A stretch of DNA of 35,304 nucleotides, from assembly GCA_964480185.1 (NCBI GenBank), contig CAYZPQ010000001.1:8240-43543 (forward strand), written 5' to 3'. Position 1 is the stretch's first letter. Each line of letters opens with the position of its first letter. The notes beneath the pieces are model-generated. The model had not been told where the DNA came from. It ran no database searches and saw only the letters and a list, made by a program, of their open reading frames with translations. Position numbers and translations under genes: made by a program. The DNA comes from an uncultured Planctomycetales bacterium. Lineage in GTDB: Bacteria; Omnitrophota; Gorgyraeia; Zapsychrales; Fredricksoniimonadaceae. This document shows, in pieces, positions 18,001-35,304 of the stretch.

Positions 18001-21000
18001 CAATATGCAACACACCAATTTGGGTTAACATGTGTTTAACTTCTTCGGGTAAATCTTGATCATCATCTAATTGTACTAAAGGCAATACTTTGACTTTATC
18101 GCCATACACCGTGTGATACCACCAGGCTGTTAACATGGCTGATATGACAGCATCCATGTCAGGCTTCTTATGGCCAATAACACCGATAACACGATCACCA
18201 GGTTTAACATTTTTTAACACATTTGCGCGCGAAGAAATAAATTCTTGGGCTGTCAACAGAGGCTTATCTACGGTAACACCAAAAAGGCGTTGGCCAACCT
18301 GATGCCATTCTTCTGCTTGTTCATTTTGATTATAGGCTTGTGCATTTTGATAGAAATGGCCAATCATCTGTAAAATACGTATGCTTAAAATATGCGCTGG
18401 CATTGCTTTATATGGATCTTTGTCGTCGCGATCATAGACAGCTAAAGGCATTGCATCCCGTAATTGTTGAATCACCGGACGATTCACACGGTTTAAAATG
18501 CTTAATAATTTTTCGCCATGCACTTGATAAAAAGCTGCTTCATCTGCCTTTATAGCCTCTTGATTAACATCAAAACCATATACCTCGGCATATTTCGTGA
18601 TGATAGGATTTAATTCTTTCTCTAAATGAGATATCGAAGCTATGCGTGTTCTTAATATCATCCAGGCCTTGTGCGCTAAGAATCCTACTATCAGTGAGAA
18701 TATACCAACAGCGATGTTAAAACCCATGGTTGCTAAGAGCGTCTCATGATGTTCAATGGGTTGAATGACTTGTGCTGCTTGGCCCCTCACAAAATATGCA
18801 TCCAAGCCCCATAAGCCAAATACAATATAGAACGCTTTTACTGCTATATTTTCTATGCCAAAGAATCGAATCAATTCTCCTAACTCATTCATCAATATTG
18901 ACCTGCAAGAAGGCTCAACAAACAAATCAGCAGTTGTACCAGAACCATCTCGACCTATGACGATATGAGACGTCGTTGCTGAGTTAAACTTCAATTGAAT
19001 TAATAATTGCTTGGCTTGCTCTATAGTCCTGATGCCATATCCATTTTGAAATGGGATTCTATTCTCTGTTAAGACATCAATGCTAAATAAACCTTTGGCG
19101 TCTTCTAACACATATACTCTTGGCTCACGGTAGCCCCAGAAATTTCTAAGTACATATTCTTTCAAAGGATCTAATATTCTCTCTTGTAAAACACGATAGT
19201 CGCTTGTTTTAAATAAGATGGCCCCGTGTCCATTGATAGCACGAGTAAGCTCAGCAATACTCATGACCACGGCGCTTTCCGAGATACTATCAATTTCTTC
19301 TAATATTTGATCGACATCGATTGAAACTATCTTATTCTTAGACTTATTATCGAGACTACACTTTATTTCAGGAGAAACACCAAATTCTTTATCTAATTCA
19401 CCACTGATAAAAGCAATTAATTTCTCACGTGGATGAGACGCTATTGTGTGGGCTTGCTCGGCTATATCCAAAAGTCTATGCGCTTGGGCTAAAACCAATA
19501 AGGGTTGAAAGACTTCTTCAGTAGATCTTAAATTGAATTTGATTGTCGATACTAAAGTAACGCTTGTTAACACTAACCAACGTATTGGATCAATGGTTGA
19601 ATCATAGGCAAATAACCATTTTAAATAGTCTTGAGCTGTTTGATGATACTTCATGGTCAGAGGGGTCGTTCTAACAAAGGTATTTAAGAAACCATTCTTA
19701 TCTACTTCGGCAATAATATCTTTTCGCCCTTGCTCCTTTAACGCAAATGCATATAAACCAAATAAACTGATCCCAATCTTCGCATGCTCATACGCGCGGT
19801 CATAGCCAATATCTCCGCCTCGTGGATCAATAAGCCTAAAATCAATAACAGGATCATGCATTGTCTCCGTATTGATCATGACATTTTCCAACATAAAATC
19901 CCCGTGAATATGCTCGAGTGTGTTCGGAGCGAGTCTATCACCATAATGAGCTACTACTTGTTTTAATCTACGCTCAAAACCCTGTGTTCTTCTAGCATTG
20001 ATCACGACGGTGTCTTCAAACATCCCTGCCATCACCTGTGATTCATCTTGTGCTTCATGCAATCGCTGAATTGTCTTTCCAAGAATAAATTTATCAACGT
20101 AAGCTGATCTATGGCAAGGCTCACATATTTGATAAAACCCTGCCTGATTTAGGCTATCAAATATGGACTGAAGAATGCGCACGATGTCTTGAGGACTAAT
20201 ACGCTCATCGGAAATAAGACTTTCTAATGTTTGCCATTGGGGACTTGGATAATAAGGCATGTCATACCAAATCGTATCTCCTTGATCTCCTGTATAGCTT
20301 TCTAATACAGGAGGAAAGAATTTGGCTGATGATGGGCGATTAGCTTCTTTTTGAAGCGCTTCAATTTCCATCCTCAATTTTACAGGTTGCCCTGGCTTAA
20401 AACGTTCTTCCTTACGAACAACTAAACCATGTGTTGGGCTCTTCACTAACATGACCCGCGCATTGGACGCCGACCAGAATATCTTGACAACAGTACCTAC
20501 TCCTTCTCTTCTCAGAGGTCCTTGTTGTCCTTCTGCAGATTCCCACAAAATCTTTTCAATATCTCTATCGCTATCAATCAATGCCTTTGCAGCTTCTTCT
20601 AATGGCTCTTCGGATAGTTCTTTAAAATCATGAATCCTTTCATCTGGCAGCATCATGCCCATGACCTTAACGCCAGATGTTTCTGTTCTATCACCAAAAT
20701 TTGTTTCTAAATAAAAATTGCCATTTCTAAAGCGCACATCCCATGGGACTGGTGCCTTTAACATATCGGCGAATGCATCGATGGTCATATATAATCTAAA
20801 TGCACTATAACAAGCCTCTCCACTTGCTAATGATGCTGCTATTTTTTCTCTGAGTACAGGATTGCCGCGATGACGACGGTCTTCAACTAAAAACCGTCTT
20901 GACCCATCAGAAAATAAATAGGCTCCTGATTGAGGTTTATCATAATTACGCACCATTTCGCTCACAACACCCGCATTGTATTCATCCATGATACTCAATG

Positions 21001-24000
21001 CAGCGACCCATTTATCAATAGGAGAAACGTGCTTCATGACAAGCCCTGTTAAATCATTAACCCGATGAGTTCTCAAGTAGTCCACTTGTCTTGCTTTCAA
21101 CATCGCTATTAAATTTTCTGGAGAATATTCAATGCGACCATCTTGTTTACCTTGAACTCTAAATATATTGTATGGTTTCAATGCACCACTAATATCTCCA
21201 TTACCAAATGGCAATTCCTGACTATTGTCATCGACAAATGCACTGCTTGGACCAATGTAATAGCCTTTGTAAACGCCCTGTGAAATAAACAAAATGTTGT
21301 CAGGATTAAATCCATAAAATGCGTTACTGATAAAATTATCCACAACCTTTGTAACAGTTTCATCGTTAACAATAATAATGATTGTCTTAGAGGCAATAAC
21401 TATTTTAGGGTCACGGTTATGCTGTTTAGCTAAACGTTGCAAATAGCCTCGATAAATGACGAGCTGACGAGGACCTAAAGGAAGAATGAATCGATGCGCA
21501 AATTCTCTTAAATAAGTGTGTACTGTTGAATTGGGATTGGCTGCTGTGAAACAATCCAGCGCTTCTCCTAATTCTAATGAGAATAAATTATAGGCTGTAC
21601 TCAAAAAGACAGACCCAAAGGTCTTGCGCATGCGGGTCATAGCCCCGCCAAAAAAGAATATTGGGGCAAACTTGCCATCAATTTCTTGCTGTTCTGCGTT
21701 TGATCGTCCAGCCGCACTTATAGGTATATTGCGCATATTAACTGGTGCATCAACGACTACGTTTGATGCGGGGATCAATTGATTAACCTCATCTACTTCT
21801 TGGTCAATACATTTACCTAAAGCGTTGGTATCTTCTAGTCTTAATGCAGCGGCTTGATATTTTAATGATAATTCTTTGATGGATCTGTCACGTGGCTCTA
21901 TTTTAGTAAGCAATGTTCTTAAAATATCAAGTGGTGGCGGTTGACGGAAAATAAGGCGCCCACGCTGAAAAAGTAAATACTCGGGGTTAACCCTAATCCC
22001 ATATATTTCGGGGAAAGATAACACATGATGTACCGCATCGTTCATTGAACTATTAGTAACAATGTATTTCTTTGTTACTTGAATAGCTTCCCACTCATTA
22101 TGAATGCCCTTTAAATGTATTCTTTCATGCCCTTCAATAAGCCCTCTTAAAAATATTTTTAATTGTCTTAGATTATGTTCCTGAACATCTCCTTCGGTTA
22201 ATAATCTTTCAATGACATTAATAATAGACAAATGAACGAAGAATATTGTTCCCCTTGAACTGACTGCCATCAGCGACTTTTTAAGTAGTTTCTCATTAGA
22301 CGTAACCACCAGTGTATCAATATTATGGATGCCCAAATTATTATGTGCTAATTTAGCTACTAAACTAATCGCACGTCTGGCTTTATCACTCAATTTGACC
22401 ATCTGAGAAACATCAAATCGGTCATCTCGAACTGCGTTAAATGTATAGTGCTGGGTTACTTGTATGCTGGAATCAAAATAATAATCATCTGCGACTAAGA
22501 AAGGGGCTTTAAGAATATGAGCGACGCGCTGTTGGTGTAATGCTTGTGCAATAATCTCAAAATATCGTCCTACACGTGAAGGCCCTTTGATAAATGAATT
22601 TACGATATATGACTTATCCCTGCGCGACTTGCCTACATTGACAGCTAAATCTACAAAAGGTAAAACAGGTTCATCATTTCCATAAAATTCATCACCAAAA
22701 TAAACAATGCGCGGAGAAATACTGCCCACATCACGTAATAATTGAGTGATGGCGCTGCCTTTATTCACATCTGGTACAAATATATCTATGGTTGATGTCC
22801 CAGAAATTCTAACGCCTACTGAAAGGCCCTGTTCTCTAACCTTGTCTTTGATATATCCTTCCCACACGCGTCTCTTGTTATAATTGGGATCGAAATTTTT
22901 CCGTAATTGATCATCGTGGATTCGACCAAGCACGCTAAGACTAATTTGCGCGCCTTCTTTATAAATCTGTTGCTGAGGCTTACCTTGCCAAAAGGAATAC
23001 TGGCTAATTTCGCTAAATGCAGCAATGGTTTGTTGCAAAATTAGTTCTGCACGATGCTGAATATCAGGATCCATGGTGCGGTTATAAAGTAAGATAGGAT
23101 CGGAGTCGTATAAGTTAATCTTATACATTGTCGATCCATTATTAATAATGATGTAAAAATATCCCCTATAACCTCTACGTTTCGCTTCTGCTCTCAATGG
23201 TTGAATAACATGTTGATCAACACGCTTGTATTCAACCCCTGTGGCAATAGCAAAAACCGCCCCTTCTGCAATCAAATCAATAATCTTAACGGCCATTGAT
23301 GCTGGAAGTGGATGGTGTGTCTCTGCCAATGTATTATCTTTGTCGGCAATGACAATCAATCGACGGTTTTGGGCAACAATTTGTTTTAAACGATATGTTG
23401 GTGATTGTGTATATGCGTGTCGTCCTGCCACGATAAAAGTCAATACCAAGGCGATGAGACTCATATAATTCATTGCGCTCAGTGTTTGAGGAGGCAAGCT
23501 AAACTGATCTTGAGCATAAGTATTCGCTGCTAGCTTAAATAAACCAACCGCTAATAACATGCCAATAATATTTCTTTGCTTAAACCAGCGGCTGATGAAT
23601 CCTTTCTTAAACAATAAACTCAAACCAAAAACAAGGGCGCCTATTCCCGCGAATGTTGCGGTTATTGCCAACATCGTCCCTAACTTGATAAATGGACGTG
23701 AGGGGTCCACATTCACCACAGAAGCCAACCCTAAAGGCAATACCGATGCCGCATGGACAATTGGCCAGTAAAAGAATGCGTCTGTCCAGCCCACTTTTAA
23801 ATCCAACACAGTATTGGTAAAATTATCATTAACGGTGGCTCTTAGTTCTTCGGTAATCGCTTTTGCCCGTCGTGATTCACGTAGAGATCTGGCAAGTGTG
23901 GCAACCGTCTTGGTGTAATATTTAAATCCTTCAAATATCATTAACCCCACAAAACCTTGTAAGGCAAATACCCAGGCAAATTTTAATGACGCTTCAGTTT

Positions 24001-26164
24001 TAAGGATTAAATGCATGCCCGTAAACAATGTCACAATCGCTGCTTGAGCAAAAATAATAACTGTCATCATCAAATACTTCTGGGCACGCTGATGAAGCCA
24101 TTCTAATGTTAAAAGACCTTTGATCTTCTTATTGGCCATATACCCATCAATGATCCACGCAAAACCCTTGGCACGCAGAAGACTTAAAACTAAAATCCCG
24201 CCCGTCGTTAACCAGAAATGTGTTTTACCTAGTACGGCAATCAGCATAATCTCAGTAGCAATAGCAATGGCCATAACGCTAATGCCTTGAAGCAAAAGAC
24301 GGTCGATATGACGTTGGCTCATAAATGTATTATCATAGGCCTTCACACCACTGCGTATGATGCGATGGAATCCATAGTACCCTGCATAGGTTGTAAAGCC
24401 TAATAGAGACGAGGCGACAAGATGAATGCTATCAACACTAATTGGAATATAGGCGAGAATATGCTGTGTTGTATCTTTAAAATATACAGAAGCAATGGTG
24501 ATCATTAAGAATGGCACCAGCGATAAGGGCCCAACAATATTTGGAAATCCTTTCATCCCTTTGTCATACATACTCTCTTCCCAACGACGGACATCTTCTT
24601 CGGTCCCTGCCGGTGGTTTATGTTTCATCCATAAATAAATGATCACAGCCGCTGTGATCAAAGCAACAACACTGCTTCCCGTTAACGTACTTAAGCTCGC
24701 GATGAGTGGAACGATCGACGATAAAACCATTGTTGGTTCTTGAATAATGCCTGCATTGACGGGTATTGCTGTGGCTGATGCGGCACCGACGAGTAATAGG
24801 GGCCATAAAATGCTTCTTAGGGTACCATTGCGATGTTTACTTTGTGTATGTTGTTTACGTTGTTGTATATACGTATTAAGTCTATCAATAGCCTCTAACA
24901 CACCCCATGTTAGAGCAGTTATCAGTCCAAACAATACCACAGCCGTCATTGTTTTTTGCCACCATGTTGTCGTGAGCATAAATTCATCGAAATAATCAAT
25001 AGGCATCACCATACGACCCGCATCTTCAGTCAGAATAAATTGTTGAGCCAATGCAGGTGTGCCAAATGCGATGAACGATAAAACGATAATATGCATGGGA
25101 TTCTTTAAATTCCATCTCGCAATCGCTGCAATAAAGATAATCGCTATAAGGATACTAATTGTTTCTGGTGCAATTGTGATCTGTGCATTAAGGCCAATAG
25201 CAGCAAAGAGTGGGCCTGAGGTATTTTGAATCATACTCACAGGCTTATGCTGATAGGGATCATGGCTATTGGTATTGCGTTTGAAAATATCGAATCTGCC
25301 CTTAAACGTATTGGTTGGATACGTGATATTCGTCGGGGCATTCATCTTCATCAAATATGTCGCACCACCTTTAGATTCTAAACGTGGCGTTGATGGCGTA
25401 TCATTCGTCGTAGTCTCTCTTGTCACTGGCTGACGACGCCCAAGGATTTCTGCGCCTTTGCCAGTAGAGTGTTGCACAGGATTGACCGTAACCGTCGGTG
25501 AAGGATCGCGTTGGAATACTTTCCATTTCCAGAATTTAAGCCATGAGAGATCAATTTTCTTAACGACTTCGACAACCTTGGTAAATGGCTTGCCGATACT
25601 AAAACTATTCGTACGTTTACTTAATTCATTACTCCACTGAGCACCTTTAGTATTAAATGGTGTTGGAGTCACAACGTTACCAGTTGTTATACTATTCGTC
25701 GCTGCAGGTGTTTCTCCACGGAATGCATCAACACCCTTTCCACCTTTGTAAGCAAGTCCCTTGAATGTTGGTGTGGGCAATGCGCTGTTAGTCAATTCAC
25801 GTGCTCTGTCACTTAATGCTTTGAAATCAATGACTCCCTTGGATTGTTCCATCACACGAGGACGCTGTGGCAAGGCAAGACCATTGGTCATGACAGCCAA
25901 GTTTTGTTCAAGGGCTTCAAGATTGATCGGTTGTGCTGGTATAGTCGCTGGTGTATTGGTGACCTGTGTGCGTCGAGGTGCATCAATGGTAAAGCTAAAT
26001 GGATCTTGGGCGTGCGTATTAGGTGCGAGTGTAAATAAACCAAATGCTAAAAATATGGCGAAGAGCCCTCGCTTCTTAAACCAACGATTTAAGTAGCCTT
26101 TCTTGTATAAATAACGAATGCCCCATACGGTGGCACCCATACCAGCGAAAGAGACTGTAATAGC
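1..26164 (-). CDS. Giant multidomain membrane protein, downstream segment. It has 8,721 sense codons in the same frame as the upstream ORF and is 3'-partial, running off the window.
   Basis: Hand translation of the minus strand immediately after the TGA, in the same phase, gives uninterrupted protein-like sequence to position 2. The track lists no complete minus ORF in this phase below 26165; the four small minus ORFs there are in other phases. That is expected if no stop is reached. The first in-frame ATG after the TGA is at 26138-26140, inside a predicted TM helix, with no spacer and no SD-like sequence. Many enzyme motifs are listed as separate features below. Confidence 0.85.
2..2900 (-). 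other. Long Gln/Glu/Leu/Lys-rich, probably all-helical or coiled-coil region with no recognised domain
   Basis: The translation is rich in heptad-like helical sequence, for example ...LVELRKDSVQMFTNFDPINHRFIELKKVFTSLKNQHQRMYKA.... It has no hydrophobic TM stretches or catalytic motifs that I can recognise. Confidence 0.35.
2920..4100 (-). other. Superfamily-1 helicase/ATPase core, Upf1/DNA2-like (AAA_11/AAA_12 type)
   Basis: Walker A is VVEGPAASGKTEM, with GPAASGKT at 4004-4027. Motif II is VIIMDEASRE at about 3651-3680. Motif III is LILIGDLEQMGPF at about 3555-3595. Further motifs are LTKNYRAVPLLADLVSELSYAGQV, VVTFYTGQIELL, TTPQSFQGGERKAIIVD and LTVALSRARDHMAVI at about 2930-2975. Confidence 0.7.
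4890..5290 (-). other. Cluster of predicted transmembrane helices
   Basis: Hydrophobic stretches include SLPVVAAFVALLSSVYFL, FLLIFSSVITPFVITT and WISLILLLTSIVFVGIAIVMTYW. Confidence 0.5.
6390..6680 (-). other. HEAT/PBS-lyase-type repeats
   Basis: The translation reads RLAAAQLLGEAQHP...GRIQAAMALALHGHQDAIRTIIDRLKIEDDPRVRDVLLWALRHG. Confidence 0.45.
8861..8941 (-). other. Internal Sec-type signal-peptide-like segment (AMA|Q)
   Basis: The segment reads KLKRIVARYVMPWIIGLIAIFPSIAMA|QTAANGNDSS. It lies within a TM-helix cluster spanning about 8150-9420. Confidence 0.45.
9332..9412 (-). other. Internal Sec-type signal-peptide-like segment (AMA|D)
   Basis: The segment reads KATKRNSLKSALIVTSLLIIAIAPAMA|DNSFVALHPN. 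It shows a classical n/h/c-region layout with an AxA site. Confidence 0.45.
10230..10870 (-). other. HIT/GalT-superfamily-like domain (GDPGP1 / Ap4A-phosphorylase-like nucleotidyl transferase or phosphorylase)
   Basis: RRCPLCSS has its CxxC at 10838-10849. It is followed by GNDFVAIREDYPYF...ATIARKSH and GYNHKDSGGKVQHQAYKLF, with QHQAY at 10601-10615; compare HLHFQAY in GDP-hexose phosphorylases. The histidine pattern is not canonical. Confidence 0.4.
13190..13267 (-). other. Internal lipoprotein-signal-like segment with a lipobox (LTGC)
   Basis: RFKEIKLFIASWLLPLLIAVSALTGC|MTQSRNNGG has L-T-G-C at 13190-13201. This fits the [LVI][ASTVI][GAS]C consensus after a positively charged n-region and a hydrophobic h-region. 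Confidence 0.45.
13595..13609 (-). other. Second HExxH motif (HELHH), a possible metallopeptidase-like site
   Basis: The motif sits in MMIILLHELHHTDQGK, within a soluble block at about 13300-14060. Only the short motif supports this call. Confidence 0.3.
14240..14765 (-). other. Pro/Val/Glu/Ala/Thr-rich low-complexity linker
   Basis: The translation reads KPVEAQTVQVSAPPVEPQAATAQDP...TEPSPVNMPVREEVVVPSTPVAAEAKAIEPVVLPASIIETTPPAMPVITPEVVMPPVTTEMNAPAAV. The 136-aa plus-strand ORF at 14292-14702 is its antisense shadow. Confidence 0.6.
14900..15400 (-). other. HEAT/PBS-lyase-type helical repeats
   Basis: Repeats are recognisable in SSPVRAFGLISLSDV, DEFVRYVAWRLMERF and ENPHVQVAAAHVATNF, at a spacing of about 30-40 residues. 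Confidence 0.45.
15878..15976 (-). other. Internal signal-peptide-like segment (n-region, h-region, ANA|Q)
   Basis: The segment reads RRNLQGKIVSAASGAATVFIAGLIALQYSLANA|QSV. Two or three further TM helices follow downstream to about 15650. Confidence 0.45.
16100..16570 (-). other. Fic/Fido-like domain with a degenerate active-site motif
   Basis: YLRIQPFEFARGQQARILLDYMLIRAGYPPL has its motif at 16187-16222. QPFEFARGQQAR replaces the canonical HPFx(D/E)GNGRxxR. Helical Fic-core-like sequence lies upstream (EEDFFEINRIL...GKWRVGH). Confidence 0.5.
17190..18210 (-). other. DHH/DHHA2 phosphoesterase domain (family-II inorganic pyrophosphatase-like)
   Basis: Motif I is RVIGVIGHKKPDMDAVISAMLTAW at 18121-18200, matching GHxxPDxDxxxS. 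The DHH motif LHDHHAYM has DHH at 17786-17794. A C-terminal DHHA2-like part follows, around FYFNSPLSGVFDEKG...FTIVNISD. Confidence 0.6.
19740..20530 (-). other. APH/choline-kinase-fold small-molecule kinase domain
   Basis: The catalytic loop LEHIHGDFMLENVMIN has the HxDxxxxN motif at 19883-19906. It is followed by FRLIDPRGGDIGYDRAYEHAK at about 19801-19833, matching the IDxxxxxxGDxxYD pattern. An N-lobe-like segment VGTVVKIFWSAS...VVRKEE lies upstream. Confidence 0.6.
20680..21690 (-). other. UDPGP-family (UGP/UAP-like) sugar-1-phosphate nucleotidyltransferase domain
   Basis: APIFFFGGAMTRMRK at about 21625-21675 resembles the L(A/N)GGxGTR(L/M)G loop, with Gly replaced by Met. LPFGNGDISGAL at about 21181-21216 resembles PxG(H/N)G(D/G). 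Further on is GAYLFSDGSRRFLVEDRR. Confidence 0.5.
22630..23365 (-). other. HAD-superfamily subfamily IIB domain (phosphatase or PMM-type phosphomutase)
   Basis: Motif I is RRLIVIADKDNTLAE, with DxDxT at 23330-23344. It is followed by FAIATG, and the C-terminal motif is VNKGSAITQLL...IVYFGDEFYGNDEPV, matching the KG...GD..ND pattern typical of HAD-IIB. Confidence 0.65.
23500..24840 (-). repeat. Polytopic membrane module, copy 2
   Basis: Copy 2 runs KHRNGTLRSILWPLLLVG...ALITAAVIIYLWMKHKPPAGTEE...KGMKGFPN...YIPISVDSIH...QKYLMMTVIIFA...WVFALQGFVGLMIFEG...NDNFTNTVLDLKVGWTDAFFYWPIVHA...KLGTMLAITATFAG...KKGFISRWFKQRN...NTYAQDQFSL. Similarity is visible at nucleotide level, for example 26401-26470 against 23921-23990. 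The offset between copies is about 2.49 kb. Confidence 0.8.
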
Positions 26165-27330
26165 TCACATCACGCCAACTTTGGCTAATGGATGCTTTAC
26201 ATCAACTAATGAGGCAATCCATGGGAATACTTTTGTTGATGCATGTAAAATTGGCCAATAGAAGAATGCATCGGTCCATGGTATTTTCAAATCTAAAATG
26301 GTGTTTGTAAATGTATCGTTAATCGTCTTACGTAAGTCGTTTGTCACATGTCTTACTTGAATGGCAGTATATAATTCTCGAACAATGTCGCGTGTTTTAT
26401 TGGTGTAATACATTAATCCTTCAAATATCATCAACCCAACAACACCCTGCAAGGCAAAAACCCATGACGATTGTAATGAATAGCCACTATCTAAAATTAA
26501 ATACATTCCTGTAATCCACGTCGCAATCGCAGCAGGAGCGAATAAAATCGCGGTCATTAATAAATATTTTTGCGCATGTGCGTAGATTAGTTCTAATGAC
26601 AACTTGCCTTTATTATTTAAGCTCGCCATCTTCGCATCCATGATCAACTTAAATCCATAAGCACGTACCATGCCTAATACCAAAATACCAAATGTCGTCG
26701 CGATGACTTGGGTTTTTCCGATCATGTAAATCAGAGCTATTTCCGCGCCAATCGCTGATACAGCTAATAATGTTCCACCAATGTAATTATTTCTGATAAT
26801 TGTTTTCGAAACACGCACACGATCAAGAGCATTCACAGCGCTGCGTATGTAACGATGGAAGATGTAAAAACCAACATAGGTTGCCAACGCTAAGATTGAC
26901 GTGGCCACATAGTGAAGACTTAAAGAGCTAATGGGGATGTAACTTAAAACTTTTGTCGTTTGTATTGGGAAAAATACTTGAGCTAATACGATACCAAGGA
27001 ATGTTGGGACAAACATCGGAGCAACTGCATTCGGGAATGTCTTCATGCCCTTTGCATGAATTGTTGCAATCCATTCAAATGCTTTCTCACCTGTGCCTGC
27101 TGGGGGTCTGTTGGCGATCCAGGTGCGGATGACGATGGCGGCGGTGATGAGTGCAACAATAAAAGCGCCGGTTGGGGTTGATAGTGTCGCGAATAAACCT
27201 AACACAGGTGTTTCGTTAACCATTGTTGTACTAGAACCAATGACATCTGCATTAAGCGTGCTGAAATTTGACGTAGCAAGAATCAATCCTGCTAAAAATA
27301 GCATCCAGCGAATGGAGCGGTGCATTTTTA
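25990..27330 (-). repeat. Polytopic membrane module, copy 1. It spans the in-frame TGA.
   Basis: Copy 1 runs MHRSIRWMLFLAGL...ALITAAIVIRTWIANRPPAGTGE...KGMKTFPN...YIPISSLSLH...QKYLLMTAILFA...WVFALQGVVGLMIFEG...NDTFTNTILDLKIPWTDAFFYWPILHA...KVGVM*AITVSFAG...KKGYLNRWFKKRG...NTHAQDPFSF. It is collinear with copy 2 at a roughly estimated 45-50% amino-acid identity. Confidence 0.8.
26165..26167 (-). other. The only in-frame stop codon (TGA) in 11,767 codons. It could be a read-through or recoding site, a nonsense mutation, or a sequence error.
   Basis: The minus-strand context is aaa gtt ggc gtg atg TGA gct att aca gtc. The flanking peptide KVGVM*AITVSFAGMGATVWG aligns with KLGTMLAITATFAGIGALVFG in the paralogous module. 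In that copy the equivalent codon is TTG (Leu) at 23669-23671. Confidence 0.6.
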
Positions 27331-30300
27331 GTAGCAAGGTCTTAATTTGATGATGGTAGACTAAAGCAAGTACCGTTAATCCTACTGCAATTAAACTATG
27401 TGAATAAAAAGCCATAAGGATTGGCAACATAATATGGGCTGAACCACCATCTGGACTCGCTGGTGGATCAACACGGGTTACACTTTGTCTAAACACATCT
27501 TCAACTCTTTTCCCTGGTTGAAACTCGTCTCTGACAGCTGCTGGTCGGAAAATACTCTCATATGGCTTCTTTTTGCTCATGACAAAATCTAAATCTTCTT
27601 CTGCTATTAAATTCGAATCATTAAATTGATGGCCCATTACGCCGGCATTAACAAGTGCGTAATAACGCATATCTTCTTGTATGCCAAAAACATTTTTAGC
27701 TTCATGGAAATACTGATACTCAAAACGATTATTAGCATTATTGAGGAAGTACATCCGGCTCACATCACGGGCAGGATTTTCATCAGGGCCTAATAAATGA
27801 TGCCCGATGATTTCATGACGAAGAATATCATTAAGCAATGCAATAAATCTAACGGAGTCTTTATCCTCCACATTTAATACTGGTGCTCTCATTAATTTCT
27901 TATTAATGACAACAGGCTTCTCTATTCCGGTGAAATCATAATAAGCCACGTCATCGCTATCAAGATATCTGACATCAACAAGTCTCTCAAACTCTCTAAT
28001 TCCTAAATAATCAAGAGAGTCCAAAAGATTCTCTTGTTTTTTTATACCTAGAGAGTATTGAATGTATCGATTAATTTGCTCATCATTAAGCGCTTCATAC
28101 GTCAATCGCTGATTAGATAATAACTTTGCAGGATAATTTGATGCCGCCGCCGCTTCTTCTTCTTTAATACGTTCTTCTTTCATATTGGATGGAACATCCC
28201 AAACAACATCATAATCATTATCACCTGAGGCAATTGGTTTTGGAGATCTCGTTGTATAGACTTTTGTCTTACTTGTTGAATCCCATGGAAAATATTTCCA
28301 AATCAAAGCCAAGAACTTATCAGATCCCTTCGCCTCAATTAAGGATATGCCGGTAAACATCTTCACAAAGAAACGTTGAATAGCGACCATGCGTACTAAG
28401 CCGTCATACATTTTATTATGTAGTTCGCGTGTGTGAGAATTAAAGTTTGTGAAATCAACATCACCTAAATGATGGTGACTATCTGTAGCATTTTTATCAT
28501 TCAATTGACGCTGGCCAAAAGTAAAGACTTCTGCTGAACCCATGAATATCTTCTGGAATCTCCAGAAACCACTTAATACACCCTTGGTTTGTTTCGCTGT
28601 CATTTTAACAGCATCAAACTTAGCATCTTCAATCGGCATACCAAAAATACCTTTGGTACCTCTCACCACACCACTCAAGAAGCGTGCTCCAAAATGATCT
28701 TCGGCATTTCCACCATGGACATGAACTTCTTGGCTGCTATGCGCTGTACCACGTAATTTTCGAACCAATAGCTCAAGAATTTGATGATAAACAGACTCTT
28801 CCCCAATAACAATAGTTGGATTTCCTAAACGCTCCCATAATGGACGTTTTTGAATAAATCGTAATAAAATCGTAAACGCAAATATATTAAATAAATATGC
28901 TGTTGCTTCAATCAAATACGCTTTAAAACCAGGATCCATATGTAAAATGATTCCCGTCACAAGTAACTTATGGAAAAGTAAAGGCGCAATAATAACCCCA
29001 AGAATGACATGCACCACACCCACAACCTTGCCCCACATCACTTCTTTAACACGCCATTCCCACTTTGAAGCATCTTTATCAATAGCTTTCGTCATATCGC
29101 TTTCAATTTGATTTCCATCAGCATCTTTACCAACAATTGTTTCAATCTTAGCTAACGCCTCGTCACGTTTTTCTTTCAATAACTTAAGTTGTATTTCATC
29201 TAGACGCATTCCTAAAGGATTATCTTTTGGAAAGGTATTCTTAACGCCTTCCGCTAAATTAATTGCAATTTCTAATATCTCAAAAATTAATGCGGTTGTA
29301 TCTACTGTGGATGCTTCCGAAAGCCTAATATTTGCTCCTGTGACAAATATTCTGCCCTTAAATCTACTCTTACTGTTAAATCGCTGACCAATAGCCATAC
29401 CCATCATGCTATCAACACGATTTGTAACAACGAAGACTCGGTCACCAAAAAGTTTATAAAGCTTTCCCGTCCCAGATAATGTTGGGAATGTTTGTCCAGA
29501 ATCACTGATTGCAATAAAGATAGTACGTTTTGTCGCACCAAATTTCTTAGGATCAGCGATTAACTTATTTGATGAAATTGCATCAATATTAAGATCCGGA
29601 AAAATATGTTCTAAGACTTCTTTGAGTTTTTCACCTGCCCATTGTGATTTTTCAAAACCTGTAATAATAATGTGTCTTTGTTTAAACTCTGGCAACACAT
29701 TACGTCGCGCGTCTCTACGGAATATAGAACGTAAATGGTGTACCATCCGACTAAAAACTGAAAGGGCTTTCTGAAATGGCATTTTCTCAGATGGAAGTTC
29801 TTGAAATGCCTTTACTTCTTTTTCCCACTGCTCAACTAATCTTCCTTGCGAGTCAACAAATGCTTTCACCATCCATTGAGACAATTCACTCAAATGAGCT
29901 TGAATATCTTTATCAAAATCAGTGATAAGTTCATGCATTTGATCTGGCGTAATGCGTGTTCTTGGATTACGACGGTATAAGCGTGACGCCAGATTCTCTG
30001 CATGCGAGCCAAGTTGATTCGTTAACATCATCTTCACATAATCAACCATAACTGTATTATTTTCCACCGCTCGAATAAAATCTGCTGTTAGCGCACGTCT
30101 CGCATCAGGTTGGAGATCTACGAAAACTCGGTTTGTATAACCAATAAGTTGATTACGAATTAAACCATCTAAAGAACCCCACTTCGTTGAATACTTCCGT
30201 AAATATCGTTCAATTTCAATACCATTAACCATCTTAACTAATTCATTTGTACTAATGGCATTGAATTTACTTTGTTCTAAGTTCTGATTTCTTAATGATG

Positions 30301-33300
30301 GATTTTCTACAGGTAAGAAACTATTTCTTATCCAATGCAATACAGATGCTGTATCTTCAAAATCAACCCATAATAAATTTGCACCGGGGTCATATTCCTG
30401 TAACTTCCTAAAGTATGGATTCTTTTGTTCATCTAATTCCATCTTTCTAGCTTCAATATCTTCAGTTGTGAGTTCGCGATTCAGATTCGCGTTAAACCCA
30501 CGTATTTTTGGACGGCCATCTTTAGTCATCGTAAAGTCAATTACTTCTCCACGACCTTGAATATCCATATCAAGACGATGTGTCAAATACCCACGATCAC
30601 CATATTTCACTTGTAATACAAGCGCTTCGGAAGCAAAGGCAAAGAATTTCTCAACAGTGTTCCATCCTAAGGAAATAGATTGATCTAATGTAAATAACGT
30701 GACCCCGTCATCAGGAATTGACGTACGAATAACAAAACCAAAGCTACCAAAAGATCCTTTTTGGAATTGACGCCCTGCATGATAACGATTATTTAAGAAG
30801 AAGTTGCGTACCACCCCTCCTACAATTTCATTAATCTTTGCTTCGCCACCACCAAATGTTGAAATAATTTTCATAGCTTTGGCATCGCCTTGAAGCTGTT
30901 GCACTAAGTCATTTTGTAATGCTTGTAATGCATCGTACTGTGCTTTTAATTGAGGATGCTTTGCTACTTGTTCTTTCGTCACATACAAATGATTTAATGC
31001 TTTCGATTCCATACGAAGTTTTGGACGACTTACGGCAGCAGCATGTTTAGCAAAAACGCGATCTGAGATTGTCGCTAAATAATTACGGTCATTGATAGGT
31101 AACATGGTGTTCGGCGCATTCTTATCATCTAAGTCTTTGCCACCGGTAAGATCTTCAGGTTTCGATAAGCTCAAGACGAATCCTAATTGCCATGACGCAG
31201 TAAAACGTTGTTGTGTCCAGAATAAACGAGCGATACCAGATGCTGGTGGAGAATCACCTGGAGTGTCATCAGCCCATGGGTAATCCGATGGTTTCTTTAA
31301 TTGCTTAACATACAAGGCTCTTCTTAAGAATGGTCGTAATTCATCTTTGTTATTACCGTTATCAAGTTTACGGCCAAGAATAAAGTAGTCATCAAAATCA
31401 CCGTTATGCGTAATGGCGATAATAAAGTTACCAAACTTTTGAACGAGAATACCCTTTTCATTAAAATCCCAATAAGAAATTCTCTCTTCAATGAATTGCA
31501 CATGTGGATGAGATGCTTTCTTCGTCGCCTTACCAGCTGTTGCAAAACGCACGTGCCCTGACCATATGCCTAATCGTGTGCCTAAGAAATACCCTGATTC
31601 GATTAATTTCTCAATAACGCTTAACCATCTATTTAACGTGATGTTTTCTAAATTTGCGCGTTTTCCCTTAATTTCTTTTAAGAGGACAAGAATTGTTTGC
31701 ATTGATTTATTCATGACAAAATGAACTAAACCAATTGTCTGACCACCCCGAATTGTAATTAAATTGATCTGATTCTTGATCCCCTCTTGAACCCAGTGAG
31801 GTGCAATTTCTTTGGATTCTTCTTCAGTTAAAATACCGCCAATACCAAAGTTTCCGCATTCACTCTTATCGCCAACACCTAAACGTAATATATCCGTCTG
31901 AATAGACCAAATTAATGCAAATACGGAAGCTGCCATCACAATTGGCCAAGGTAAAATCGTTGCTACTGGTGAAGTCATCCAATCATGCTTATAGGCAATC
32001 ACTGCAGCGACTAAGGATATGTTGACCGCTGCCCCTGCTAAACGATTTGTCAATGTGGATTGAACGGTTACAGAAGGACCTTTAGCGTAGTACCCAAGGA
32101 CAGGAATTAAAGCGCCAACGATATGAAGAATATTGAGATTGCCTAATATATTACTTAATGTGAGTGTTCTAAAATTACCTCTTAAGACACTTTCAAGAAT
32201 ATGTCCCCACTCATTAGCAATAAAGAATCCAAATACGGCAGCTCTCCACATGAAGGCATATTCAATAGCCATCTTCACATCGCGCGTTTTCCATAATGTG
32301 AGCGCAATCACAACGATATCTAACAATCTTAAGAGACGATTTGGCGCAGCTTCCTCGACATAATCGCCCTCATCGCCAACCATGACCTTAACGCCATCCG
32401 TATTATCGCTTGGGATAGTTGTTGTATCATCTAGTACCGCTGCATTGGTCTCAACAATGGGCTTGTCATCTGTTGCAGCTGATGAGGCATTCGTTGAAGT
32501 GTCATTTGAGTCGACATTATCTAAGATGGGATTATCGTCCTCAATCATTAAATCATCTTTAGCATCTGCTGATTGTGCTGCCGCAGGCTTCAGCTGTGGT
32601 GGCGGAGGTGTTGTAGTTTTCGTCTTAGGAGTTGTTGGCTTCGCCTTGTCTGCTTTCTTTGTCTTCTTTTCTTTTGGCTTTCTCCAGGCGCGAATAGCTA
32701 ATTTAACTTCTTCGAATATCTCCGTCATATTGCTTGGCACAAAACCACTTAGTTTTTCAGTTATAGCAGACGCATAATTTTTGATGACATAAAATGCAAT
32801 AATAAGTCCTAATAAAGCAAGGATCGCATATCCGATGAAATGCATATAAATATGATTGTATTGAATGTACTTAGGATAGAAATCAAACTTGTGGCCCTTT
32901 CTTAAGTCTCTTACTTCCACCGCTTCCGCAGCAGGATCAATTTCTTTTAATAATGGCAAAATACGTTTAATGATAATATTAAACTCATTTGTACGATCAC
33001 GTTGTTGATTCAACACAATATACTGTTTCAAATCAGGTACAGCATATTGGCCTATCTTACGAAGCGCATAGTGTGCTGCAGCCTGAGCTGGTTCATATTT
33101 GTTATAAGGTGAAAAACGATTGAAGAACATTGGGTCGCGATCTTCACCGCTCACCAACACTTTAATAATCTCAGGAGTAATGACACTGCGTTGATTACGG
33201 CTTGCTGCTAAGTCTCCAGCAAATTTCACCATGGCAATTTCTTGATATGTTTTAGGACCAGAATGAGTACTAAATTCTGCTAATACACCCGCCATGGTCG

Positions 33301-35304
33301 CTTCGGCTTTTCCACTATTGGATCTGGAAATTTGATCTCCTGCTAAAACTTGTAAATCCCCATTATTGAAATTATTTGTGGCGTTTGCTGCCGATGTGTT
33401 TAACGCGATATCTTCATAGAATTGAATTGCCCCATTTGTTCTCACAGGATATTGACCCATAACCCATTGAATACTCATTTGCGCATCAATACCGCCAAAG
33501 ACAGAAGCATCCTTGGCAATATAAGGAGCTAAGGCTTGTTGTGTATTACCTAGGCCAATGATTGCATTTGTTAAAAATGCTTTGTCACCGATTGAAAGTG
33601 CTCTCGCTGATTCATATAATGAATTTGTTGACGGCGCTACACGACTATAATTTTCGCGCAGATCACGATGCTTTTGCACGAAGTCTTCATATAAATAACG
33701 TGTCTCATCTGTCCATCCATGCCATGGTTCATCATAATGAATTTGCCACCAGCGTGGTTGCTCATCAAGCAATAAGCTATCTTGGCTATAAGGTTTGTAT
33801 TCCACAGGTAAACGTTGTGCAAATGTGTGATAAGCGCGCTCATCTACTTCGGCTAAGATCGATGCCAATGGCCAGTTGACGCGCCCCTTGCTATATTGCT
33901 TAGCTAACTCATTTGGGAGAATTATTGTGCTAGCTGCTCTATATTGTTGAGACAACATGACTTCACGCATAGCATCCATTAACTTGAAATATTCACGACG
34001 ATGTTCAATGTTTTCATTCCAATAATTAGCATGGAAAACAGTTTCTGTTTGAGCTAAGCGTAATACATTATCTTTGCGTTGTTCTGGTGTTAATTGTCTC
34101 GTTGGATACTCTAAGACATTCATTAATGCCACTTTATTGTCATTCGAATAGTTATCGTAGACAGTCGCGACATTATCCTTGGTGTAATTTAATTCTTCAA
34201 AGATCGTATTGATCGTTGGATCATTTTTCGGTGCAATATAGAAATCTGGTTGATTAACAACTTTATTAAGTACGACAATTGCATTCGAGGTGGTCACATC
34301 GTCACTCTTTTTCATATCAAGCATGATGCGTCCACCATATGGCGGAATATAATTTAATCTAGCTAATTGCTCAACTGCAGTACTTGTGAGACCATGTTTT
34401 GCTTCTCTTAATAATCCATTCGCTATTGTCGTCGATGTACGAATCGTTTCTACTTCTTCGGCTCTTAAAGCAACCACGCCACTCTCATCATCAATACGGA
34501 TACCTAAGGCATTGGCTGCCAGAGCACGGATAACATCGACTTCATTTAATTTCTTCGGATCAGTCCCAACACTTAACAAGGCTTCACGATGACGTGCCAC
34601 TAAACGTGTTTGAATATCTGCACGACGATCTAATGGGACATTGCGGATGCTTGTAACCACATTGCTAAATGATTGGTTAAATAAATCAAAGCTATCTGGT
34701 GTAAGACCACTATCTCTGAAATAACCTAACATTGGTTCAATGGATAAATTAATAGGACGATTTTGAGCTGCTAAACCAGGCACTGTAGCGACGACAGCAC
34801 GAATATTTGGATTGGCATGGTTGATGTAAGGTTCTAGGCTTCGTAACGCTTCAGGTGTACCGATGTTAATTAATCGTTCTAACAAGCTCTTGGTATGAAT
34901 ATAGTCGGTTGTTTTGGCTAAGCGTGCTTCGATCGCTAAACGGTATTGATCTTGAGCTGGGTTGATCAACATCACTTTGCGACGTTCTTCATGCATTTGA
35001 TTCAACACATCAGCCCAGTCATTGGCCATCTCATCATCAGGTGAATCACGGAATGCTTCTTCAACAATAGGCCAGAACACTAAATCAGGTGTGGTTTTCT
35101 TGAAATACTGAGCCAATCCTCGACGTTGATCTAAGGTAAGTCTGTCATTGGTGACATTGGCTAAGTACATCACGTTCTTAAAATCTTGTGGATTCGTTGA
35201 GAGAATTAGCTTTTGTACCAATCTTAAACGCATTGCTTCTTGTTTTTTGCTTGTGCGTAATGAGGTTTCGATTCTCTTATTTAATAAGTCATCAAAGTCA
35301 GCAG
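26165..35304 (-). CDS. Giant multidomain membrane protein, upstream segment. It is 3022 aa from the first ATG at 35231-35233 and is probably 5'-partial. It ends at the in-frame TGA.
   Basis: The ORF track lists a 3022-aa minus-strand ORF ending in TGA at 26165-26167. The same frame stays open for 23 more codons upstream of the ATG, to the window edge (...ADFDDLLNKRIETSLRTSKKQEA-MRLRL...). I see no clear Shine-Dalgarno sequence before that ATG. The translation carries class-II amidotransferase and SIS motifs, an HExxH motif and several TM clusters. Confidence 0.9.
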   Translation of the reverse strand, partial: ADFDDLLNKRIETSLRTSKKQEAMRLRLVQKLILSTNPQDFKNVMYLANVTNDRLTLDQRRGLAQYFKKTTPDLVFWPIVEEAFRDSPDDEMANDWADVLNQMHEERRKVMLINPAQDQYRLAIEARLAKTTDYIHTKSLLERLINIGTPEALRSLEPYINHANPNIRAVVATVPGLAAQNRPINLSIEPMLGYFRDSGLTPDSFDLFNQSFSNVVTSIRNVPLDRRADIQTRLVARHREALLSVGTDPKKLNEVDVIRALAANALGIRIDDESGVVALRAEEVETIRTSTTIANGLLREAKHGLTSTAVEQLARLNYIPPYGGRIMLDMKKSDDVTTSNAIVVLNKVVNQPDFYIAPKNDPTINTIFEELNYTKDNVATVYDNYSNDNKVALMNVLEYPTRQLTPEQRKDNVLRLAQTETVFHANYWNENIEHRREYFKLMDAMREVMLSQQYRAASTIILPNELAKQYSKGRVNWPLASILAEVDERAYHTFAQRLPVEYKPYSQDSLLLDEQPRWWQIHYDEPWHGWTDETRYLYEDFVQKHRDLRENYSRVAPSTNSLYESARALSIGDKAFLTNAIIGLGNTQQALAPYIAKDASVFGGIDAQMSIQWVMGQYPVRTNGAIQFYEDIALNTSAANATNNFNNGDLQVLAGDQISRSNSGKAEATMAGVLAEFSTHSGPKTYQEIAMVKFAGDLAASRNQRSVITPEIIKVLVSGEDRDPMFFNRFSPYNKYEPAQAAAHYALRKIGQYAVPDLKQYIVLNQQRDRTNEFNIIIKRILPLLKEIDPAAEAVEVRDLRKGHKFDFYPKYIQYNHIYMHFIGYAILALLGLIIAFYVIKNYASAITEKLSGFVPSNMTEIFEEVKLAIRAWRKPKEKKTKKADKAKPTTPKTKTTTPPPPQLKPAAAQSADAKDDLMIEDDNPILDNVDSNDTSTNASSAATDDKPIVETNAAVLDDTTTIPSDNTDGVKVMVGDEGDYVEEAAPNRLLRLLDIVVIALTLWKTRDVKMAIEYAFMWRAAVFGFFIANEWGHILESVLRGNFRTLTLSNILGNLNILHIVGALIPVLGYYAKGPSVTVQSTLTNRLAGAAVNISLVAAVIAYKHDWMTSPVATILPWPIVMAASVFALIWSIQTDILRLGVGDKSECGNFGIGGILTEEESKEIAPHWVQEGIKNQINLITIRGGQTIGLVHFVMNKSMQTILVLLKEIKGKRANLENITLNRWLSVIEKLIESGYFLGTRLGIWSGHVRFATAGKATKKASHPHVQFIEERISYWDFNEKGILVQKFGNFIIAITHNGDFDDYFILGRKLDNGNNKDELRPFLRRALYVKQLKKPSDYPWADDTPGDSPPASGIARLFWTQQRFTASWQLGFVLSLSKPEDLTGGKDLDDKNAPNTMLPINDRNYLATISDRVFAKHAAAVSRPKLRMESKALNHLYVTKEQVAKHPQLKAQYDALQALQNDLVQQLQGDAKAMKIISTFGGGEAKINEIVGGVVRNFFLNNRYHAGRQFQKGSFGSFGFVIRTSIPDDGVTLFTLDQSISLGWNTVEKFFAFASEALVLQVKYGDRGYLTHRLDMDIQGRGEVIDFTMTKDGRPKIRGFNANLNRELTTEDIEARKMELDEQKNPYFRKLQEYDPGANLLWVDFEDTASVLHWIRNSFLPVENPSLRNQNLEQSKFNAISTNELVKMVNGIEIERYLRKYSTKWGSLDGLIRNQLIGYTNRVFVDLQPDARRALTADFIRAVENNTVMVDYVKMMLTNQLGSHAENLASRLYRRNPRTRITPDQMHELITDFDKDIQAHLSELSQWMVKAFVDSQGRLVEQWEKEVKAFQELPSEKMPFQKALSVFSRMVHHLRSIFRRDARRNVLPEFKQRHIIITGFEKSQWAGEKLKEVLEHIFPDLNIDAISSNKLIADPKKFGATKRTIFIAISDSGQTFPTLSGTGKLYKLFGDRVFVVTNRVDSMMGMAIGQRFNSKSRFKGRIFVTGANIRLSEASTVDTTALIFEILEIAINLAEGVKNTFPKDNPLGMRLDEIQLKLLKEKRDEALAKIETIVGKDADGNQIESDMTKAIDKDASKWEWRVKEVMWGKVVGVVHVILGVIIAPLLFHKLLVTGIILHMDPGFKAYLIEATAYLFNIFAFTILLRFIQKRPLWERLGNPTIVIGEESVYHQILELLVRKLRGTAHSSQEVHVHGGNAEDHFGARFLSGVVRGTKGIFGMPIEDAKFDAVKMTAKQTKGVLSGFWRFQKIFMGSAEVFTFGQRQLNDKNATDSHHHLGDVDFTNFNSHTRELHNKMYDGLVRMVAIQRFFVKMFTGISLIEAKGSDKFLALIWKYFPWDSTSKTKVYTTRSPKPIASGDNDYDVVWDVPSNMKEERIKEEEAAAASNYPAKLLSNQRLTYEALNDEQINRYIQYSLGIKKQENLLDSLDYLGIREFERLVDVRYLDSDDVAYYDFTGIEKPVVINKKLMRAPVLNVEDKDSVRFIALLNDILRHEIIGHHLLGPDENPARDVSRMYFLNNANNRFEYQYFHEAKNVFGIQEDMRYYALVNAGVMGHQFNDSNLIAEEDLDFVMSKKKPYESIFRPAAVRDEFQPGKRVEDVFRQSVTRVDPPASPDGGSAHIMLPILMAFYSHSLIAVGLTVLALVYHHQIKTLLLKMHRSIRWMLFLAGLILATSNFSTLNADVIGSSTTMVNETPVLGLFATLSTPTGAFIVALITAAIVIRTWIANRPPAGTGEKAFEWIATIHAKGMKTFPNAVAPMFVPTFLGIVLAQVFFPIQTTKVLSYIPISSLSLHYVATSILALATYVGFYIFHRYIRSAVNALDRVRVSKTIIRNNYIGGTLLAVSAIGAEIALIYMIGKTQVIATTFGILVLGMVRAYGFKLIMDAKMASLNNKGKLSLELIYAHAQKYLLMTAILFAPAAIATWITGMYLILDSGYSLQSSWVFALQGVVGLMIFEGLMYYTNKTRDIVRELYTAIQVRHVTNDLRKTINDTFTNTILDLKIPWTDAFFYWPILHASTKVFPWIASLVDVKHPLAKVGVM
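27800..27817 (-). other. HExxH motif (HEIIGH), a possible zinc-metallopeptidase-like site
   Basis: The translation LNDILRHEIIGHHLLGPDENP covers residues 2473-2478 of the 3022-aa ORF. Only a short motif supports this, and I do not recognise the surrounding family. Confidence 0.3.
29330..29700 (-). other. SIS (sugar isomerase / sugar-phosphate binding) domain, GlmS-like
   Basis: The translation reads IIITGFEKSQWAGEKLKEVL...TIFIAISDSGQTFPTLSG. Compare the GlmS SIS motifs ACGTSxxAG and AISQSGETADTL. Confidence 0.6.
30500..31858 (-). other. Class-II (Ntn-type) glutamine amidotransferase domain, GlmS/PurF-like, with insertions
   Basis: Motifs appear in canonical order. First is SE-CGNFGIGG, with the Cys codon at 31856-31858 (residue 1126 of the 3022-aa ORF). 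Next is GIWSGHVRFATAGKATKKASHPH, compare GlmS GIAHTRWATHG...NAHPH. Then come ITHNGDFDDY (HNG motif), DDTPGDS...IARLF, GSFGFVIRT and FAFASEALVL. The motifs spread over about 450 codons, which is more than a typical domain of this class. Confidence 0.7.
31895..32345 (-). other. Cluster of predicted transmembrane helices
   Basis: Consecutive hydrophobic stretches include LLRLLDIVVIALTLW, AAVFGFFIANEWGHIL, ILHIVGALIPVLGYY, AAVNISLVAAVIAY and ILPWPIVMAASVFALIW. The cluster ends 15-20 residues before the amidotransferase Cys. Confidence 0.5.
32560..32690 (-). other. Lys/Thr/Pro-rich low-complexity linker
   Basis: The translation reads KPKEKKTKKADKAKPTTPKTKTTTPPPPQLKPAAAQSADAKDD. It follows a single TM helix (YMHFIGYAILALLGLIIAFYVI, about 32775-32850). 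Confidence 0.6.

Follow-up and report, generated by a model that had tools for sequence, protein, structure and literature searches.

Giant genes of the Omnitrophota type, which encode multi-enzyme proteins rich in transmembrane segments, have been described in uncultivated bacteria, above all in Omnitrophota (bioRxiv 10.1101/2023.11.21.568195; 10.64898/2026.06.07.730766). Such proteins are reported to be overwhelmingly sequence-unique, with 80% singletons (10.64898/2026.06.07.730766). The stretch of DNA studied here comprises 35,304 nucleotides (nt) of contig CAYZPQ010000001.1 (positions 8,240 to 43,543 of the forward strand; hereafter the window) from an uncultured bacterium of the Omnitrophota lineage. 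The window is best read as lying wholly inside one giant gene of at least 11,767 codons for a multi-enzyme protein rich in transmembrane segments. This gene is read from the minus strand and carries one in-frame stop codon, a TGA at 26165-26167, which is the subject of this work.

The architecture of the encoded protein resembles that of Omnitrophota-type giant proteins. Likenesses include a single open reading frame (ORF) of more than 10,000 codons, many transmembrane segments and unrelated enzyme domains in one polypeptide (36 hydrophobic segments were counted in a hydropathy scan of the ORF), and a sequence that is unique and without close relatives. There are also differences. A SecA-like DEAD domain, as is said to occur in the published Omnitrophota giants, was not detected in the window, and the helicase embedded here is Upf1/SMUBP-2-like. 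The neighbours of the described giants are type II secretion or pilus genes; the window holds the giant ORF only, and the ends of the gene and any such neighbours lie beyond it.

An in-frame UGA with protein homology beyond it is also found in bacterial selenocysteine recoding and in programmed UGA read-through. The present locus shares this feature, but it differs in that no selenocysteine insertion sequence (SECIS) or stimulatory structure was found, the residues aligned with the stop are aliphatic and not cysteine, and the stop lies in a membrane helix rather than in an active site. Genes split by a nonsense codon can be expressed by termination-reinitiation, as in the classical restarts after nonsense codons and in 70S scanning. 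Here too a start codon follows within about 30 nt of the stop, in the same frame and on the same mRNA. However, this start has no Shine-Dalgarno (SD) sequence, and the arrangement is not conserved in a paralogous copy of the same module. We consider it most likely that the TGA is neither a native gene boundary nor a recoding site. On balance, we favour a real lesion, that is, a derived and young one-base nonsense change in a leucine codon, or a strain variant in the consensus.

The interrupted reading frame and its duplicated membrane module

In a scan of in-frame codons, one minus-strand frame (first bases of codons at 35302, 35299 and so on) spans the whole window with both edges open. Its 11,767 codons include no TAA, no TAG and one TGA, which stands in the context TGA-G. 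The part upstream of the stop (26168..35302) has 3,045 open codons, and the part downstream of it (2..26164) has 8,721 codons without a stop, down to position 2; both are open to the window edge. As the remaining two minus-strand frames contain 842 and 1,165 stops, the frame is coding on both sides of the TGA and is no chance opening. Codon usage upstream and downstream of the TGA is correlated with r = 0.97, compared with 0.28 for an off-frame control, and the GC content of third codon positions (GC3) is 0.315 upstream and 0.327 downstream. No frameshift was found across the 35 kb of frame, which indicates that the consensus is generally accurate.

Chunked self-BLAST revealed one internal duplication in the frame, between amino acids (aa) 2703-3104 and aa 3533-3936. 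The duplicated unit is a membrane module of ~400 aa, distantly similar to DUF2269, and its copies are 49% identical in pairwise alignment. Copy 1 (25991..27196, minus strand) contains the TGA, and copy 2 (23495..24706, minus strand), which lies 830 aa downstream, is uninterrupted. Aa 3001-3068 and aa 3831-3900 form the BLAST segment across the stop, with an E-value of 9e-20. Within it the TGA is aligned with a Leu codon of copy 2 (TTG, 23669-23671) between identical neighbours, G-x-M-(stop/L)-A-I-T, and the DNA at the junction reads GATG TGA GCT in copy 1 and GATG TTG GCA in copy 2. The stop falls at about the fifth residue of a hydrophobic helix, VGVM-stop-AITVSFAGMGATVWGIRYLY (26105..26179, aa 3042-3066, minus strand). 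The first in-frame start-type codon after it is an ATG nine codons downstream (26138-26140, minus strand), which also lies inside this helix. The positions of the TGA, of the paralogous TTG and of the ATG, as well as the placing of this ATG within the helix, had been proposed in an earlier sequence-only reading of the window, and all were confirmed on the minus strand.

The same reading had claimed that homology continues across the stop, which is borne out by the comparison of the two copies. In the 58 codons after the stop, 33/58 residues are identical to those of copy 2 (57%), with a nonsynonymous divergence (dN) of 0.275 and a saturated synonymous divergence (dS), and the post-stop stretch is at least as conserved between the copies as the pre-stop stretch. 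Different codons encode 16 of the 33 identical residues. The eight codons between the TGA and the next ATG are 6/8 identical to copy 2 as protein, again with synonymous differences. Since dN is far below the saturated dS and since 16 of the 33 identical residues differ in their codons, the post-stop stretch has evolved as protein in its present frame since the duplication. Judged from this comparison between the paralogous copies, the codons after the stop are shown to be under purifying selection in this frame. The stretch that evolved as protein includes the eight codons that precede the ATG, and the stop is derived.

More distant relatives were sought with a HMMER profile of both copies against 1.84 billion representative proteins. 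The matches were P0001, a public protein that corresponds to the upstream part of the frame itself, P0002 (1,606 aa, E 4e-10), P0008 (912 aa) and six proteins of ~290 aa; P0002 and P0008 are larger proteins with an embedded module. A ten-sequence alignment was made from copy 1 and nine comparators (copy 2 and the eight distant relatives), and in none of the ten does a further helix of the module follow the interrupted one. In the nine comparators the stop column is occupied by L, V, L, M, V, I, L, M and I, and all nine run on into the final hydrophobic helix, which begins at this column. As all comparators continue through the stop column, the stop cuts a helix that is kept by the whole family. 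The earlier proposal of one continuous frame in which a hydrophobic helix has the stop in place of a Leu thus holds for the paralogue and is extended by eight distant homologues, which all continue with an aliphatic residue. The make-up of the column argues for an aliphatic residue at this position, Leu being the simplest, and speaks against Trp, Gly, Cys or selenocysteine.

DUF2269 (PF10027) in Pfam is matched by five of the six ~290-aa proteins, and five of P0003-P0009 are at or near threshold. Copy 1 itself scores 19.2 bits (E 0.0014), below the 28-bit gathering threshold, and copy 2 has no match. The module is linked to DUF2269 only distantly and indirectly, through P0003-P0009. Over its C-terminal ~250 aa it can be aligned with the ~290-aa DUF2269 proteins (profile E 8e-8 to 7e-4), and the core PAPAA...TG...W.F.L.G..G and the final C-terminal helix are common to both. 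The module differs in being embedded twice in a giant protein, in having an extra N-terminal part of ~150 aa and in being followed by a signal-peptide-like hairpin. P0002 and P0008, the sole multi-domain relatives of the module, have a conserved N-terminal region after the signal peptide (LNLP.PG.M...FEP..IKGI......P..FDFI.D), which has no Pfam match. A structure model of the module made from the two-sequence alignment had a mean predicted local distance difference test (pLDDT) score of 40 and was judged unusable.

Close orthologues of the interrupted gene were absent from every collection searched. The full profile search returned no close orthologue, only P0001 and the distant DUF2269-like relatives. 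A search of the protein collection with a junction-spanning query and with the 354 aa after the stop gave none either; as this word-index search missed P0001 too, it is a weak negative. None was found among viral contigs, among genome contigs searched with paralogue-conserved peptides and a degenerate WTDAFFYWP pattern, or among metagenome contigs searched with the WTDAFFY and KGMK patterns. The VGLMIFEG pattern hit 26 loci in metagenome contigs, none of them related by tblastn, and megablast against phages and plasmids gave no match.

P0001 (3,022 aa, recorded once in public collections, with NCBI as the source, on a contig of 57,898 bp) is 100% identical to the translation of 26168-35233, from the first ATG to the TGA. 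Its start, ATG 35233, lacks an SD sequence (rank 0.6) as well as a signal peptide, and upstream of it the frame continues without a stop through 23 more codons to the window edge (35233-35304). The giant ORF probably extends past the window, or has another interruption there. The downstream ORF (2-26164, >8,700 aa) was absent from the 1.84-billion-protein representative library in the profile search, although a match as strong as that of P0001 would have been expected from its copy 2 module. This absence could be due to a length cap, to masking, or to the ORF being annotated as partial or as a pseudogene in the source record.

Origin of the stop codon

The favoured explanation is a recent nonsense change. 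A Leu codon would have become TGA by a single base change, for which TTA to TGA, one transversion, is the simplest path. TTA is the favoured Leu codon of the frame (584/1,159), as had been noted earlier. The plus strand has C at 26166 and would have A were the codon TTA; the change on this strand would have been from A to C. The stop falls within the last helix of one copy of a duplicated DUF2269-like module. Termination at the UGA would give a product of ~3,022-3,045+ aa without the final helix of the module, and the 8,721+ downstream codons would be translated only via inefficient routes. One such route may be near-cognate read-through of the UGA, which would yield the full protein at a low level. 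The other may be termination-reinitiation at the ATG nine codons downstream, which would keep a signal-peptide-like element whole (RWFKKRG...NTHA/QD, where the slash marks the putative cleavage point), and the downstream part may then still be exported.

Because of its length, the gene is a large mutational target for nonsense changes: 5,169 of the 105,894 possible single-base changes in the frame (4.9%) create a stop. No second stop or frameshift occurs in the 26 kb downstream, from which it follows that the lesion is very recent, or that the downstream part is still made and under selection, or that the change is not real. A decaying pseudogene is not supported, as there is a single lesion in 35.3 kb and the codon usage downstream is unchanged, which would fit a very recent lesion only.

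Several points weigh against a real mutation. The paralogue, the distant relatives and the consensus sequence alone do not separate a mutation from a consensus error, and Illumina assemblies are documented to contain local errors by which giant genes are split (bioRxiv 10.1101/2023.11.21.568195). An inactivating mutation would also be expected to be purged or to be followed by decay, and an error would account just as well for the intact 26 kb downstream.

An error in the consensus or assembly is the alternative that survives best, and we regard it as possible but doubtful. The organism would then have a sense codon (Leu) and an uninterrupted gene, and the G of the TGA would be a wrong base call or a minority allele. 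The 26 kb of intact downstream frame with unchanged codon usage and the position of the stop inside a family-conserved helix are both in line with this. There is also a precedent, since a gene of 74,983 aa was obtained by merging two adjacent giant ORFs once a local assembly error had been corrected (bioRxiv 10.1101/2023.11.21.568195). The source is a single NCBI contig with no second copy in the searched collections, as is typical of a metagenome-assembled genome. However, the rest of the 35 kb is free of frameshifts and further stops, which indicates a low error rate of the consensus, and substitutions that keep the frame are the rarer class of assembly error. Repeat-driven misassembly was rejected: the best DNA stretch shared by the two module copies is 73% identical over 177 nt, and they are therefore too diverged for a misjoin, no closer repeat being present.

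It is unlikely that the UGA is a functional partition, tolerated or used through leaky or programmed read-through or through reinitiation at ATG 26138, with a ~3,000-aa product and a downstream product that are both functional. Such a partition would be consistent with the intact downstream frame and with the ATG nine codons past the stop, beyond which lies a complete signal-peptide-like element, RWFKKRG-LFAIFLAFGLFTLA-PNTHA/QD (26009..26086, aa 3073-3098, minus strand), of a kind that recurs within the ORF. Against this, the ATG has no SD sequence, as the sequence-only reading had stated: its anti-SD duplex has an energy of +0.9 kcal/mol, and 91% of the 649 internal start-like codons in the ORF do better; no better candidate start was found within 105 codons. 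In copy 2 an Ile codon (ATA) takes the place of the would-be start and the stop is missing, and the arrangement is thus not conserved; the upstream product would moreover lose a helix that every family member keeps. Nor is there a sign of a read-through structure. The RNA fold of the 126 nt from the stop onward is no better than that of shuffles (z = -1.44), and Rfam gave no match in the window at gathering score and none in 25900-26400 at E <= 10. Selenocysteine or structured read-through was rejected on the basis of these results and of the lack of Cys in the stop column.

Two genuine, long-standing genes in one frame, the first ending at the TGA and the second starting at ATG 26138, are very improbable, even though the public gene call ends the 3,022-aa protein at the TGA and a shared frame occurs in one third of adjacent gene pairs. 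The eight codons from the stop to the ATG match the paralogue as protein at six positions with synonymous differences, the helix that they encode is conserved in all relatives, and the stop is not at a domain boundary. A native gene boundary with translational coupling was likewise not supported, given the continuous helix in the comparators, the ATG without an SD sequence and the Ile in the paralogue. A promoter or terminator marking a boundary was also rejected, since the candidate hairpin is inside a coding stretch and such matches are near shuffle expectation. This terminator-like hairpin with a T-run (GCGAGGGCTCTTCGC CATATTTTT, 26058-26072, minus strand) lies ~95 nt past the TGA, within the signal-peptide-like coding stretch. 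Two terminator-like sites were found in a 1.1-kb scan (25600-26700), compared with 0.6 expected, and the hairpin is probably due to chance.

The idea that TGA is a sense codon (Trp in code 4, Gly in code 25, or selenocysteine) accounts for the homology across an in-frame TGA but is extremely improbable, and an alternative code was rejected. A single TGA stands against 159 TGG and 633 GGN codons among the 11,767, whereas TGA is in routine use where it has been reassigned. The residues aligned with the stop are L, V, I or M without exception, never W, G or C; no SECIS-like structure was found by Rfam or folding, and no transfer RNA (tRNA) gene was found in the window. Among the explanations put forward in the sequence-only reading, a nonsense mutation, an error and low-level read-through all stand, whereas programmed read-through has become less likely in the light of these negative results for selenocysteine, an altered code and a read-through structure.

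The public protein P0001 represents only a piece of a gene that exceeds 11,700 codons, and its C-terminus is not native; in annotation, one interrupted gene should be recorded for the two parts together. As a feature, one premature stop within a giant gene is ordinary in an assembly of metagenome type. Single in-frame stops are expected in giant genes because these are a very large target for both nonsense changes and errors, and because of such stops giant proteins will be systematically undercounted. Little new biology is likely to be learned from the stop itself, which matters mainly for annotation.

Internal signal-peptide-like sites and encoded domains

A more interesting lead than the stop is offered by signal-peptide-like and lipobox sites that recur inside the giant ORF. 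As read from the sequence, each signal-peptide-like site has a stretch rich in K/R, then a hydrophobic core of 11-14 aa and an AxA or TxA motif before Q or D. The putative NTHA/QD element of copy 1, which lies 52 aa past the stop, has a conserved counterpart in copy 2 that reads RWFKQRN-IIGMLLAVGLFKLA-ANTYA/QD (23513-23590, minus strand; the A of the cleavage motif is at 23513-23515). Besides NTHA/QD and NTYA/QD, sites of this kind are PALA/QQ (25046-25048), LANA/QS (15878-15880), PAMA/DN (9332-9334) and IAMA/QT (8861-8863), all on the minus strand, the coordinates of these last four being those of the codon for A at position -1. A strict AxA scan found four sites in the forward sequence and one in the reversed sequence. 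The middle of the ORF also has a lipobox-bearing signal of the lipoprotein type, KEIKLFIASWLLPLLIAVSALTGC/MTQ (13190-13267, minus strand, aa 7346-7371).

The recurrence of such sites suggests either that exported proteins which were once separate have become fused, or that the product is a polyprotein cut by signal peptidase. A bolder interpretation would be that the giant ORF is a bacterial polyprotein cut at internal signal-peptide and lipobox sites, and that the TGA is a functional fission or leaky partition whose product would be exported after reinitiation at ATG 26138 or read-through of the UGA. We think this quite unlikely; if true, the window would have caught a giant gene in the act of splitting at a natural processing boundary. 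The cDNA of a nidovirus-like polyprotein was considered and dropped, as DUF2269, HAD phosphoglucomutase, Fic and the Sec/lipobox signals are all of bacterial type and no signature of an RNA-dependent RNA polymerase (RdRp) or protease was found.

Hydrolase_3/HAD and PDB matches identify a HAD hydrolase at aa ~3983-4226, closest to the alpha-phosphoglucomutase 4bnd, and a PDB match marks a Fic-like stretch at aa ~6325-6387. A Upf1/SMUBP-2-like superfamily 1 (SF1) helicase with AAA_11/AAA_12 domains (AAA_12 E 2e-28; 4b3g E 8e-20) is encoded at 2906-4090 on the minus strand (aa ~10405-10799). The PDB sequence matches in the ORF are 4bnd, 3cuc and 4b3g, and there are weak matches to DHH, APH and HEAT at various positions of the frame.

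Other similarities were read by eye. The region 29303-31864 (minus strand, aa ~1147-2000) looks like a GlmS-type N-terminal nucleophile (Ntn) amidotransferase (CGNFGIGG) with a SIS domain (IAISDSGQTFPTL) after it. Neither Pfam nor PDB gave a sequence match for this region, and the GlmS/SIS-like domains, if real, would be very divergent. A sugar-nucleotide pyrophosphorylase-like motif and an HExxH motif were also recognised in the ORF.

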